Of a stretch of 64,000 nucleotides of DNA, positions 37,123-40,307 are shown piece after piece. The stretch lies in sequence record OP688485; one strand, written 5' to 3'. Under the pieces are notes generated by a model. It ran no database searches and was not told where the DNA came from. It worked only from the letters and a program-made list of their open reading frames with translations. The translations under genes were made by a program, and so were the position numbers. Within the stretch, counting starts at the first letter, position 1. Every line of letters begins with the position of its first letter. The stretch is from Escherichia phage EP_H11.

Positions 37123-37290
37123 ATGAAGATTCCGACTCTTGATCAATTACTCACCACAGCAATGCACACGGTGATTCGTCGTCTGGTCTGGAATATCCCT
37201 AAAAAGTATTTCTGGATGGTGGTGTTGGCCACCATCATTATCAGCGGATTCGCCACTTTTAGAACTCTGTTTTGGAGCCTGTTAGGATGA
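37123..37290 (+). CDS. hypothetical small membrane protein
   Basis: Hydrophobic C-terminus; ATGA overlap with the downstream Pol X gene. Confidence 0.4.
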   Translation: MKIPTLDQLLTTAMHTVIRRLVWNIPKKYFWMVVLATIIISGFATFRTLFWSLLG

Positions 37291-38045
37291 CCTTCCGTAT
37301 CGATGCTGTTCGCCACCTTCGCCAAATAGCCGAGCTTAAGAAAGCTCACGGCGACTCTGTGTGGCATGTTCGGGCCTATGATCGTGCAGCCCGTTCCCTT
37401 GACGATTACCCGTATGGGGTAACTTCCCAGATGAACTTCACTACAATCCCATGGATTGGTAATGGGATCGCTAGCGAGCTCGAAGACTTCGCTAAGTATG
37501 GCACCATGACTCCTAAATTCGTGGAGCTTATGTCTAAGATACCAGAAGGTCGTGTAGCTTACTCCACTGAGTTTAAGGATATTATTGAATCCTACCTAAT
37601 GGAGGTAACCAAGCTGGGTATTTCCGAAGGTAGCTCAGGCCGAATCTCTACTGCTGGTTCGGTGCGTCGTGGTAAGATGTGGATTCGTGATGTAGACCTG
37701 CTTACTACCTTCCCGCCAGAAGTGGTTCGCCACGCTTTCCGTCTTACTGGTATGGAAGAACTTTATGGCGGGGATAAAAAGATCCGCTTCGTCCATACTA
37801 ATACTGGTCTGGAGTTCGATATCAAGATCTGTCCAGAAGAATCCTGGTATGCATGCTTACTCCACTCTACTGGATCAATGCAGAATAACGTGCACATGCG
37901 TTCTGTGGCTAAGCGTATGGGCATGACTCTTAATGAGTATGGCCTGTTTAATGTAGAGACTGGTGAGAGGGTAGATACTAATTCTTCTGAGGAAGAACTA
38001 TACCAACTGCTGGGTCTGGAATACGCAGAGCCAGAGAATCGTTAA
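37287..38045 (+). CDS. family X DNA polymerase (Pol beta-like, minimal)
   Basis: Nucleotidyltransferase motif GSVRRGK...DVDLL and Pol beta-like C-terminal LLGLEYAEPENR. Start trimmed to the ATG at 37287. Confidence 0.6.
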   Translation: MTFRIDAVRHLRQIAELKKAHGDSVWHVRAYDRAARSLDDYPYGVTSQMNFTTIPWIGNGIASELEDFAKYGTMTPKFVELMSKIPEGRVAYSTEFKDIIESYLMEVTKLGISEGSSGRISTAGSVRRGKMWIRDVDLLTTFPPEVVRHAFRLTGMEELYGGDKKIRFVHTNTGLEFDIKICPEESWYACLLHSTGSMQNNVHMRSVAKRMGMTLNEYGLFNVETGERVDTNSSEEELYQLLGLEYAEPENR

Positions 38046-38047
38046 TT

Positions 38048-38082
38048 CCGCTCTTTTAGGGTGCTAAAAGGCTGTTAAAGTG
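38048..38082 (+). promoter_or_regulatory. class A motif A11
   Basis: ccgctcttttagggtgctaaaaggctgttaaagtg; 28 nt before the ligase ATG. Confidence 0.5.
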
Positions 38083-38109
38083 TCAATCCAACTGTAAGGA
38101 ATAACAAAG

Positions 38110-40053
38110 ATGGAAAAAGTCGCTGCTCTGGTAGAGCAAATCAAGAATGCGGCTAATGCATATTATAATGGTGACCAGCCCATTATTACGGACGAAGAGT
38201 TCGATGCTCTTACCGAGAAATTAGCTGAGCTGGACCCTAATAACCCACTCCTTACTACCCCAGGCTGGGGTGTAACCGAAGCTGCAGAACATCTGGCTAA
38301 GTGCCCACATGGCTCATTCGTGGGTGGTCTTGACCAGGTTAAGATCGGTGCTGTGGAAGAGGGATTTAACTTCCTCCATGGCCACGAAGAAGTTAAGGGA
38401 TTCGTTGCTTCAGCTAAGCTGGACGGTATCTCGGTAGTTCTGTATTACGACTACGACGGTAACTTCGTCCGTGGTTTAACTCGCCACGATGGTGTATTTG
38501 GTCTGGACATCACGAAGAATCTGGAGTGTGCAGAATTCCCTCGCCAGATTCCTAAAGGTATTAAAGAAGTCCGCTGCGAAATCGTTATTCCTGATGATAA
38601 GTTCGAGCGGATTAGTCACGAGTACAGTAACCAGCGTAATGCTGCTTCTGGTATTGCTCTGGCTAAGTATAGTGATCCTGCATTAATGGAACTGCTTGAT
38701 GTAGTTGCATATTCGGTAACGGCATTCTACGAGGATGTGGATCACGAGACATGGATGGATGACTACAACCAGCTTCTGCTGTGCTTAAGTAAGGCTGGGT
38801 TCAAAGTAGTTAAGTACTTCGTTCTTCCAGCAGGTTATGTCAATAGCTGGCTGGTTGCTAACCCACCATCTAAGTTCCGCGAAGATCCAGTCTGCAACTA
38901 CCTGCTGGATGGTGTAGTTCTCGGATCTATGAATGTTGACTGGGATGAGAATATGTTGGGCAAGAATACTGTCCATTATAAGATCAAGTATCAATCAGCA
39001 TTCTATGACACCACCGTGGTTAAGGTGCACTGGGTAGTTAGCGGTTACGGCCGAGTCGTGCCTACTGTTGAGTTCGAGACGGTAGACATGAGTGGCGTTA
39101 ATGTAACTTATGCATCCGGATGGAATGCTGAGTATATCAAGAATGCTGGTATCGGACCTGGCGCTAAGATCAAGATTAGTCGTCGTAACGAGGTAATTCC
39201 TCATATCGAAGAAGTCGTGGAACCCGTCACTGCGGTGATTCCAGAGTTCGTAGATGGGGTACGTACCTTCTGGGATGGTGTACACATCCGCATCAAGACC
39301 AAGCTTGACCCGATGGTGATTCGTACCATTATCCGAGACTTCGCTCCTAAGGGTCTAGGTGGCGTAAATATCAATAAGTTTGCTGAGCAGGCTAAACTTG
39401 ATGACATTTCCATGTTGAATGACATAATAAAGACTGGCCCATCTCATCCGGTATTCGGCATGGTAGAGATGTACGATGGTCCTCTCCAGCTTACTCGTCA
39501 GTCCTTCTTCAATATGAAGGAACGTCCTACCTCTATGGACCACATGCTGACTTGTACCTGGACGGATGGTCTTGGTTATGCTACAGGAATGCGTATTGCT
39601 ACTGCGGTAACCCGTGACCAGATGATTCGTGTGCTGCGTAACAATAGCTTCCACGACATGGTTAATGACGGTATCCAGGTCAATACCGAGGACTACGAAA
39701 TCTGTAAGGCAATATATGATGCCTGCATGGGTTCCGTAGCTAAGAAGATTGCAGAGAATCAGGAAGTAATCCTGAAGGTGCTGAATCTTCCTCTGAACTG
39801 GGTAGCCTCTAAGGTAGAGGAACCGCTTCCGGAAGGTAAGTTCAAGATCTGCTTAACTGGTAAGCTTAGTAAGCCTCGTAGCGAACTGGTTAACTCCTGG
39901 ATCAAATACGGCGTAGTCGAAGTCGGTATCGGCGACGCAGAATATCTGGTATGCGACAAGCCGAGTCAGTCCAGTAAGTTTAAGGCTGCCGAAGCTAAGG
40001 GTACCAAGATCGTTACCGAAGATCAATTCCGTAAAATCATTGGAGCTGAATAA
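38110..40053 (+). CDS. ligA: NAD-dependent DNA ligase
   Basis: LigA N-terminal YYNGDQPIITDEEFDAL block and adenylation motif KLDG. Confidence 0.85.
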   Translation: MEKVAALVEQIKNAANAYYNGDQPIITDEEFDALTEKLAELDPNNPLLTTPGWGVTEAAEHLAKCPHGSFVGGLDQVKIGAVEEGFNFLHGHEEVKGFVASAKLDGISVVLYYDYDGNFVRGLTRHDGVFGLDITKNLECAEFPRQIPKGIKEVRCEIVIPDDKFERISHEYSNQRNAASGIALAKYSDPALMELLDVVAYSVTAFYEDVDHETWMDDYNQLLLCLSKAGFKVVKYFVLPAGYVNSWLVANPPSKFREDPVCNYLLDGVVLGSMNVDWDENMLGKNTVHYKIKYQSAFYDTTVVKVHWVVSGYGRVVPTVEFETVDMSGVNVTYASGWNAEYIKNAGIGPGAKIKISRRNEVIPHIEEVVEPVTAVIPEFVDGVRTFWDGVHIRIKTKLDPMVIRTIIRDFAPKGLGGVNINKFAEQAKLDDISMLNDIIKTGPSHPVFGMVEMYDGPLQLTRQSFFNMKERPTSMDHMLTCTWTDGLGYATGMRIATAVTRDQMIRVLRNNSFHDMVNDGIQVNTEDYEICKAIYDACMGSVAKKIAENQEVILKVLNLPLNWVASKVEEPLPEGKFKICLTGKLSKPRSELVNSWIKYGVVEVGIGDAEYLVCDKPSQSSKFKAAEAKGTKIVTEDQFRKIIGAE

Positions 40054-40307
40054 TGTCTGTAACTTTGGAACAGGTTAAAGATGCGCTGCGATCTGCAGTA
40101 GCTGACATCATGATGGTTGATATTCTGGAAGTAACTGAAACTACTACTGGTGAGCAGTTAGGTGCAGATTCTCTGGATGAAGTGGAGATCATCATGCGTG
40201 TTGAAGATGAACTGGGTATGGAAGACTGTATCCCAGACTTCGACTATGATAGCGACGATACTCTGGAGCAGGTGGCAGAAAAGATCGTGGCAGTTCTGAA
40301 CCAGTGA
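40053..40307 (+). CDS. acyl carrier protein-like protein
   Basis: 84 aa acidic protein with the phosphopantetheine-attachment motif LGADSLDEVEIIM; TAATG overlap with the ligase. Confidence 0.65.
   Translation: MSVTLEQVKDALRSAVADIMMVDILEVTETTTGEQLGADSLDEVEIIMRVEDELGMEDCIPDFDYDSDDTLEQVAEKIVAVLNQ

Follow-up and report, generated by a model that had tools for sequence, protein, structure and literature searches.

The stretch of DNA analysed here (64,000 nucleotides of Escherichia phage EP_H11, sequence record OP688485; its full length is hereafter called the window) carries on its + strand a gene for a family X DNA polymerase (Pol X, 37287-38045, 252 amino acids), a gene for an NAD-dependent DNA ligase (LigA, 38110-40053, 647 amino acids) and a gene for an acyl carrier protein (ACP, 40053-40307, 84 amino acids), and we consider it likely that Pol X and LigA would provide the gap-filling and nick-sealing enzymes of a phage repair route that resembles base excision repair (BER) and is tied to replication. 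All three are open reading frames (ORFs) recognised by Pfam, LigA and the ACP by PHROG as well, and they occupy 37287-40307 of the + strand as a first-pass annotation of the bare sequence had proposed. The repair reading of Pol X and LigA is well supported and the observation behind it is real, apart from the detail of how the genes are coupled, and the ACP falls outside the module. The same reading has already been published for the SP15-like phage clade, with EP_H11 named as a member; since the main biological idea is in the literature, the gain here is one of refinement and correction and not of discovery. To what was known we add a compact Pol X that has neither the D subdomain nor the lyase lysine, a LigA that has neither the zinc finger nor the counterpart of Escherichia coli K290, a lineage-specific adjacency of the two genes across a promoter-like spacer, and a variable slot behind the ligase.

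In the phage collection, the only near DNA match of the window is Escherichia phage vB_EcoM_IME392 (hereafter IME392), with 93.8% identity; the LigA sequence agrees with the EP_H11 protein at 100% identity. Because the substitutions that separate the two phages in these genes are mostly synonymous (63 synonymous against 16 non-synonymous in Pol X, 90 against 17 in LigA), Pol X and LigA are genuine genes, maintained by purifying selection.

Residues and architecture of Pol X and LigA

Profile searches support both enzyme assignments. In Pol X, Pfam recognises an HHH_8 domain (PF14716, residues 8-73, E 1.2e-12) and a DNA_pol_B_thumb domain (PF14791, residues 191-252, E 5e-20), and the Pfam palm model gave no score. 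The protein divides into an 8-kDa-like helix-hairpin-helix (HhH) domain (about residues 1-85), a palm (about 94-190) and a thumb (191-252). We aligned it with eleven relatives and with a Pol beta reference sequence identical to that of human Pol beta 1bpx, and also with T. thermophilus PolX. The catalytic aspartates, on whose presence the first-pass assignment depended, are all kept, D135, D137 and D178 corresponding to D190, D192 and D256 of Pol beta; the triphosphate-binding residues G124, S125, R127 and R128 correspond to G179, S180, R182 and R183, and the minor-groove sensing residues N201 and R205 to N279 and R283. All of these positions are invariant in the 12-sequence family alignment. 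The AlphaFold model (pLDDT 91) has a helical bundle over residues 3-82, and Foldseek ranks Pol lambda and Pol beta highest among its matches (E ~1e-15). Pol X thus shares with human Pol beta the catalytic triad, the GS-RR grip, the equivalents of the thumb residues N279 and R283 and an HhH domain of the 8-kDa type.

It differs from human Pol beta in a shortened palm and in having no D/fingers subdomain (Pol beta 88-151), which holds the primer duplex through a second HhH. This is seen in both the alignment and the model, where the first palm helix (94-113) follows immediately on the 8-kDa domain. The Pol X proteins of phages YerA41 and RP13 (~300 amino acids) keep this subdomain. The compact form constitutes a separate family: when 1.84 billion representatives were searched with a profile, about 43 of the 150 best matches were 234-273 amino acids long and aligned end to end. 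A 254-residue protein of a Vibrio phage is shaped alike (TM 0.70 in either direction). A further difference concerns the 8-kDa domain. The lysine that forms the Schiff base of the deoxyribose phosphate (dRP) lyase in Pol beta, K72, is replaced by E64, which is invariant in the compact family, and the lysines of the 5'-phosphate pocket, K35, K60, K61 and K68, are replaced by H27, T52, T53 and G60; the isoelectric point of the domain is 8.1, vs 9.9 in Pol beta. Since the K72 equivalent is a glutamate, a dRP lyase of the Pol beta type is predicted to be unlikely in Pol X.

The ligase matches the Pfam models Nlig-Ia (PF22745, E 2.9e-7), the adenylation domain (PF01653, E 7.6e-20) and OB (PF03120, residues 301-371, E 3.2e-13), and it matches PHROG 3869, 'NAD-dependent DNA ligase', over its full length (E 7e-89); a BRCT match stayed below the cut-off (E 0.0076) and there was no Pfam HhH match. 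In an alignment with E. coli LigA (2owo) and 27 relatives, Y18, Y19, D28, F31 and D32 fall on E. coli Y22, H23, D32, Y35 and D36, the residues of domain Ia that bind nicotinamide mononucleotide (NMN) and that define NAD use in LigA, and Y18, D28 and D32 are invariant in the 28 sequences. Equally invariant are the KxDG lysine (K103, in K103-L-D-G; E. coli K115) and the residues of motifs III, IIIa and VI, with R125, E157, R176 and K293 standing for E. coli R136, E173, R200 and K314. Given that domain Ia is present, NAD+ is the predicted cofactor of this enzyme: judged by its residues, the ligase is of the NAD-dependent type, as the first-pass annotation had it, and not of the ATP-dependent one.

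The model of LigA (pLDDT 86) places a helical domain of the HhH type at 400-558 and a BRCT-like beta/alpha unit at 578-644, and in Foldseek its alignment with full-length E. coli LigA spans more than 600 columns (E 1e-29 to 1e-30). From the amino terminus the parts are domain Ia, the nucleotidyltransferase domain with K103, the OB domain, a cysteine-free beta-hairpin, a putative HhH helical domain and a putative BRCT domain. E. coli LigA (2owo, 5tt5), to which the protein is ~21% identical, has the order Ia, nucleotidyltransferase, OB, HhH, BRCT, with which this predicted order agrees. Unlike the E. coli enzyme, however, it has a beta-hairpin (380-395) in place of the Cys4 zinc finger: residues 372-400 hold no cysteine, no match to the zinc-finger model PF03119 was found with Pfam, and the closest clade (P0169-P0173) is alike in this respect, whereas more distant phage LigAs and bacterial LigAs keep the CxxC...CxNxxC pattern. 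The motif V position also differs, with G272 (in DGVVLG) standing for E. coli K290; bacterial LigAs have lysine here and phage relatives have A, R, T, E, I or N.

A proposed repair route in a phage with hypermodified thymidine

EP_H11 and IME392 are grouped as 'SP15-like' with YerA41, RP13, SP-15 and Carin-5, phages in which thymidine bears a long side chain with phosphate and sugar groups (PMC12686479; bioRxiv 10.1101/2025.03.26.645540). The phage of the window is accordingly an SP15-like myophage of the EP_H11/IME392 type, in which thymidine is replaced by a hypermodified base derived from 5-hydroxymethyldeoxyuridine (5-hmdU). Pol X and a ligase are reported from every SP15-like member other than phiLo, a dedicated apurinic/apyrimidinic (AP) endonuclease was not seen in SP15-like genomes, and in the polymerases of YerA41 and phiLo an N-terminal uracil-DNA glycosylase (UDG) domain removes uracil before the fork arrives (bioRxiv 10.1101/2025.03.26.645540). 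For YerA41, incision by Pol X at AP and tetrahydrofuran (THF) sites, leaving a 3'-OH, has been claimed; the enzyme fills a 1-nt gap in a templated manner, the ligase pre-incubated with NAD+ seals the gap-filled product, and Pol X co-elutes with the replicative polymerase, which the ligase does not (bioRxiv 10.1101/2025.03.26.645540).

Transposed to EP_H11, the route could run as follows. Nucleotide supply would lead from dCTP through dUTP and dUMP to 5-hmdUMP, as the gene set suggests, so that some dUTP would enter the DNA; the nucleotide steps of dUTPase and dCTP deaminase pass through dUTP, hence the risk of uracil incorporation. The extra N-terminal domain of the replicative polymerase (PolA) would then remove uracil and leave AP sites, an activity demonstrated for the YerA41 and phiLo enzymes. 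The AP site might be incised by Pol X itself, as claimed for YerA41, or by the host enzymes Xth or Nfo, and Pol X would insert the missing nucleotide by means of D135, D137 and D178 and the GS-RR grip on the triphosphate. Because the K72 position is a glutamate, the 5'-dRP would more likely be taken off by a flap or 5'-3' exonuclease route than by a lyase of the Pol beta type; an exonuclease of the FEN type or RNase H could remove it as a flap. RNase H is encoded inside the window and a FEN-type 5'-3' exonuclease just outside, as seen in IME392. Finally LigA, adenylylated from NAD+ at K103, would seal the nick, as its YerA41 homologue does. LigA most likely also joins Okazaki fragments, since it is the only ligase of the phage and the motif upstream of it is common with replication genes.

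The genes on which the supply step depends accompany the enzymes, given that Pol X, the ligase, dCTP deaminase (56781-57404, + strand), dUTPase (56040-56510, + strand) and a thymidylate synthase (TS) homologue co-occur in the window. The latter (14202-15275) closes a hypermodification block (12422-15275, + strand) which opens with a 5-hmdU DNA kinase (12422-13393; PF18723, E 4.4e-35) and continues with a Tmk-like kinase (13471-14205); the hypermodification set also holds an HD nucleotidase, a PIG-L deacetylase (9643) and a methyltransferase (6420). The replicative polymerase, which the published model pairs with Pol X, is a family A enzyme of the SP15-like type (18909-22208, + strand, 1099 amino acids; Pfam DNA_pol_A) with an extra domain of about 170 amino acids before the exonuclease motif. 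Its best solved relative is 9qhs_A (E 8.5e-40), the alignment running to residue 1068, past the end of the Pfam core at 1001 and into the C-terminal extension, and its N-terminal 260 amino acids are homologous to the N-terminus of the RP13 DNA polymerase I (E 1e-10). By eye only, 'IIGDER...PF' and 'MHHAQ' in the polymerase resemble UDG motifs A and B.

Several points weigh against this reading. Neither Pfam, phmmer nor a 4-sequence profile searched against the PDB gave a UDG match in the PolA N-terminus. Pfam detected neither an AP endonuclease nor a glycosylase domain in the window ORFs of at least 45 amino acids (47 larger and 49 small ORFs), and tblastn with the RP13 ExoIII and with a Vibrio phage 'endonuclease V' gene returned no match in the window. 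This accords with the preprint, although RP13 does carry an ExoIII-family gene beside its ligase. Among the nine annotated replication-side genes of IME392, which lie outside the window, only the FEN-type 5'-3' exonuclease and a RusA-like resolvase appear, so that the search for an AP endonuclease elsewhere in the genome, which the first-pass annotation had advised, produced none in the window and none among these nine genes. The activities of Pol X and LigA are predicted here, and the Pol X of the window differs from the assayed YerA41 enzyme, the alignment covering palm and thumb only (37% identity) with the D subdomain missing in EP_H11. The lyase and pocket lysines of Pol beta (K35, K60, K61, K68, K72) are all replaced (H, T, T, G, E), and LigA is without the motif V lysine (K290, here G272) and the four zinc-finger cysteines. 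AP-endonuclease activity in a Pol X without a PHP domain is unusual and is claimed in one preprint; in our judgement it calls for a contaminating host nuclease to be excluded. The genes themselves lie 16 kb apart in Ab1-TPeters and 30 kb apart in YerA41, which makes their adjacency a lineage feature and no requirement, and the promoter-like motif between them suggests that Pol X and LigA are regulated separately. Of the first-pass proposal of a minimal short-patch pathway, the BER-type pairing of Pol X and ligase is therefore favoured by the aspartates, the NAD-type ligase and the YerA41 biochemistry, and the 'minimal short-patch' part is not, the lyase lysine being absent and no AP endonuclease having been found in the window.

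The closest known system is that of YerA41, made up of a UDG-fused PolA (gp144), Pol X (gp158) and an NAD+ ligase (gp127) (bioRxiv 10.1101/2025.03.26.645540). Both phages belong to the SP15-like group and have the same three players in a context of dCTP deaminase, dUTPase and a TS homologue and in a T-hypermodified genome; the ligases are homologous over their full length (24% identity over 94%) and the polymerases are 37% identical in palm and thumb. The two systems differ in that Pol X and LigA, separated by 30 kb in YerA41, adjoin each other here, Pol X is 46 amino acids shorter and is without the D/fingers subdomain kept in YerA41, an ACP follows the ligase only here, and the enzyme activities known for YerA41 are read here from the sequence.

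Two other viral systems offer further parallels. African swine fever virus (ASFV) encodes a Pol X (O174L, 174 amino acids), an ATP-dependent ligase and a class II AP endonuclease, pE296R. As in ASFV, a minimal virus-encoded Pol X from which the D subdomain has been trimmed is combined with a viral ligase for AP-site repair; in contrast to ASFV, the 8-kDa domain is present here (it is missing in the ASFV Pol X, and the structural match is weak, Foldseek E 5e-3), the ligase is of the NAD type and not ATP-dependent, and the window yielded no AP endonuclease whereas ASFV has its own. In Phaeocystis globosa virus, PgVPolX is a Pol X fused to a ligase, with lyase activity, acting in viral base excision repair (PMC5537341). 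A Pol beta-like core that is physically joined to a ligase shows that the pairing recurs, although PgVPolX is one polypeptide, whereas in EP_H11 a regulatory spacer lies between two separate genes and Pol X is without the lyase lysine.

If correct, the repair reading would place an E. coli phage among the viruses that keep a chemically disguised genome free of uracil with repair enzymes of their own, which bears on how hypermodified phages escape host defences and on the difficulty of sequencing or amplifying their DNA. The compact Pol X would be a natural minimal gap-filling enzyme that must handle a bulky, modified template, and it offers a test of which parts of Pol beta are dispensable; together with the zinc-finger-less LigA, it could serve as a reagent pair.

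The spacer and the pairing of Pol X with ligases

The first-pass annotation had described Pol X and LigA as translationally linked, which the junction does not bear out: 64 nt separate the Pol X stop codon (38043-38045) from the LigA ATG (38110), and an overlap is found only between LigA and the ACP. The spacer has stayed conserved even in relatives whose flanking proteins are down to 58% identity. It contains a conserved element (CCGCTCTTTTAGGGTGCTAAAAGGCTGTTAAAGTGTCAAT, 38048-38087, + strand) which is one copy of a promoter-like motif, ends 22 nt before the LigA start and is kept upstream of LigA in the related loci L013, L020 and L021. The core of this motif, AAGGCTGTTAAnGTGT, has 16 copies in the window, all on the + strand, against 0.15 expected by chance (positions 3034, 6383, 7224, 9565, 11304, 13440, 15296, 18880, 22481, 32907, 38068, 45025, 50220, 51617, 54332 and 55407), and the longer consensus reads CCGCTCTTTTwrGGnnCTnAAAGGCTGTTAAnGTGTCAA. 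All 16 copies lie 30-135 nt upstream of gene starts, mostly of replication, nucleotide and modification genes and including those of topoisomerase II, PolA, the TS-like gene and modification genes; IME392 has 14 copies. The motif is probably a phage promoter class for replication-phase genes. A scan of the window for sigma-70 promoters showed no enrichment, with 10 found vs 10 expected. We also considered the spacer as an RNA hairpin and rejected it, given a folding z-score of -0.48 and the loss of pairing in other motif copies; the conservation is of sequence and not of structure.

On this basis LigA would belong to the replication-phase set and Pol X would stand at the end of the preceding block. 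We infer the layout of the transcription units from these elements and from two terminator-like hairpins on the + strand. One, GAACGGGTTTAAAGCCCGTTC followed by TTTT (36542-36562, invariant in L009 and L010), closes the unit before the block that ends with Pol X; the other, AGGGAGACTTCGGTCTCCCT followed by TATTTTT (41565-41584), would close the LigA-ACP unit.

This layout lends weight to an alternative in which LigA is essentially the replicative ligase that joins Okazaki fragments, and its adjacency to Pol X a by-product of genome rearrangement with no dedicated repair operon, a reading we regard as possible though short of probable. The motif of topoisomerase II, PolA and the TS-like gene directly precedes LigA and not Pol X. 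The ligase lies a few genes after an SbcC/RecN-like gene and far from Pol X in YerA41 and SP-15, and 16 kb from Pol X in Ab1-TPeters. NAD-dependent ligases, moreover, occur in 749 phage records, most of which have no Pol X; Pol X itself is, as the first-pass annotation had remarked, unusual in phages, being found by tblastn in 15 of 50,697 records.

Against this alternative, the order Pol X then LigA is kept together with the spacer from 100% down to 43% LigA identity (L013, L020, L021) while the next gene changes. Phages that do encode Pol X usually have a ligase near it, and in several unrelated ones this is an NAD-dependent or an ATP-dependent enzyme. In RP13 a stretch of 9 kb holds Pol X, LigA and an ExoIII-family nuclease (Pfam Exo_endo_phos, E 2e-16); in Vibrio phage 150E35-1, 3 kb separate Pol X from LigA; in Vibrio phage 2.275.O, 5 kb separate Pol X from an ATP-dependent ligase; and in three unrelated marine contigs (L003, at 8487-10480, L004 and L005) a palm-plus-thumb Pol X of 159 amino acids lies two genes downstream of an ATP-dependent ligase of 267 amino acids. 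That Pol X keeps company with NAD- and ATP-dependent ligases alike speaks for a functional link. The YerA41 pair, furthermore, completes gap repair in vitro, and roles in replication and repair are not mutually exclusive. We retain the BER-like route, tied to replication, as the preferred reading. That Pol X instead serves double-strand-break end joining or template-independent terminal transfer, with no part in AP-site repair, is hardly credible: Pol lambda, Pol mu and TdT, which act in end joining, do belong to family X, H193 and S194 replace Pol beta Y271 and F272 at the sugar/nascent-pair gate, and an SbcC-like gene lies at 15-2174, but the residues of templated enzymes are conserved (N279/R283 as N201/R205), Pfam finds no Ku or LigD-like gene among the window ORFs and Pol X has no BRCT, and the YerA41 homologue fills a templated 1-nt gap.

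Two observations on these phages may be added. The Pol X of the marine contigs has the size of the ASFV enzyme, and Mom-like and NUDIX genes are near it. In Vibrio phage 150E35-1 (L006), the gene between Pol X and LigA (9355-10140) is labelled 'pyrimidine dimer DNA glycosylase/endonuclease V' and has no Pfam match at E<=0.001; this annotation should not be relied on.

The ACP, the variable slot behind LigA and neighbouring genes

The gene after LigA is ACP-like, as the first-pass annotation had stated, with a PP-binding fold (Pfam PF00550, E 1.1e-7), an isoelectric point of 4.05 and a GADSLD serine that aligns with the attachment site of solved ACPs; the serine of the (G/V)DSLD motif is kept in all five ACP variants. 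The protein matches PHROG 5934, 'acyl carrier protein', in the class of auxiliary metabolic or host-takeover genes. Its helix II is near that of E. coli AcpP (GADSLDEVEIIMRVEDE vs GADSLDTVELVMALEEE; overall identity 38%), and it shares with AcpP and with phage ACPs (PHROG 5934; the phiRSL1 ACP) the four-helix carrier fold, the DSL serine, the acidic helix II and a length of 84 amino acids. It is a genuine carrier protein. Unlike in the other phage ACP records examined, it lies directly behind a DNA ligase, and no partner enzyme was detected in the window.

The first-pass annotation had counted the ACP as a member of the module, which its distribution contradicts. The gene is confined to the EP_H11/IME392 subgroup: tblastn with the ACP or with E. 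coli AcpP found none in relatives outside it, and a family HMM found none in the fetched loci of RP13, YerA41, SP-15, Ab1-TPeters and the Vibrio phages. AcpP-like genes occur in 24 of 50,697 phage records, among which there is no SP15-like phage. The slot behind LigA is filled differently elsewhere, with a PinA-like gene (3536-4069) overlapping the LigA stop in L020 (LigA 74% identical) and a Fer4_12/radical-SAM gene (2233-2961) in L021 (LigA 43% identical). A PinA-like gene, encoding a Lon protease inhibitor, is also present in the window, at 40582-41001 (+ strand) in the unit of LigA and the ACP, and its homologue is the one that directly follows LigA in L020. The most fitting reading of the ACP is that of an accessory gene of this sub-lineage, co-translated with LigA, which was inserted in a variable slot and stands outside the repair route.

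As to its function, the ACP may be an auxiliary gene loaded by the host AcpS, feeding or interfering with host acyl-ACP metabolism (fatty acid, lipid A, biotin/lipoate) and unrelated to DNA, a tentative and somewhat doubtful explanation. The closeness of helix II to E. coli AcpP, the PHROG 5934 class and the rarity and scatter of AcpP-like genes in phages are in its favour, as is the result that no phosphopantetheinyl transferase (PPTase), ketosynthase, acyltransferase or AMP-ligase/adenylating enzyme was found with Pfam or PHROGs in the window ORFs of at least 45 amino acids, although for the ~47 kb outside the window the partner search covered the nine annotated IME392 replication-side genes only.

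That the ACP is a working part of the Pol X-LigA repair module, for instance an accessory factor of the ligase, is very improbable. The LigA stop and the ACP start do share 1 nt (TAATG, 40051-40055), a GGAG ribosome-binding site for the ACP lies inside the LigA 3' end, and the junction is identical in IME392, L009, L010 and L011. However, besides being found only in the closest relatives, being replaced in L020 and L021 and adjoining neither LigA nor Pol X in RP13, YerA41, SP-15, Ab1-TPeters and the Vibrio phages, the ACP evolves faster than its neighbours (synonymous to non-synonymous changes 19:19 against L009, vs 201:49 for LigA), and we know of no ligase or Pol X that needs a carrier protein. 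An equally slight chance attaches to a role in DNA chemistry, in which the ACP would carry a phosphopantetheine-bound acyl or carbon unit with which the hypermodified thymidine side chain is built or decorated, its synthesis being tied to that of the ligase. This would be the first carrier-protein-dependent step of a DNA base modification pathway, and the tie to the ligase would mean that the chemistry follows nick sealing on new DNA.

Upstream of Pol X, the block begins with a conserved protein of 123 amino acids, its first sizeable gene (36750-37121, + strand), which has no Pfam or PHROG match and whose homologues, 56-58% identical, hold the equal position in L013 and L020. It is followed by an ORF of 55 amino acids with a single membrane pass (37123-37290, + strand), the stop codon of which overlaps the Pol X start (ATGA). 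The ORF is uncalled in public contigs; at the amino acid level it is 84% identical to its counterparts in L020 and L013, against 58% for Pol X, and its codon changes are mainly synonymous (21 vs 9 non-synonymous). The very high nucleotide conservation of this ORF was considered as the mark of a special element and rejected, since in close relatives the whole of 36700-37400 is 91-99% conserved, which fits mosaic recombination.

Elsewhere the window encodes, in addition to the SbcC-like protein, topoisomerase II, a helicase and split pieces of RNA polymerase beta'. In a preprint that discusses RP13, EP_H11 and IME392, the 5-hmdU DNA kinase (5-HMUDK) 'could not be detected'; the kinase domain is clear at 12422-13393. 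A full-length BCCT (betaine/carnitine/choline) transporter (8174-9556; Pfam E 1.6e-91) lies inside the thymidine-modification cluster, an odd place for a solute importer, and may take up a precursor for the modification. Candidate counter-defence genes are an Acb1-like gene (anti-CBASS, 32054-32560), a gene for a NADAR protein (53010-53669) and the PinA-like gene at 40582-41001. Finally, two MptE-like genes (DUF115, 'sialyltransferase'-type) and two glycosyltransferase genes follow DUF7217 at 42313-45002; this cluster is missing after DUF7217 in L009 and L020, and sugar decoration may therefore differ between close relatives.

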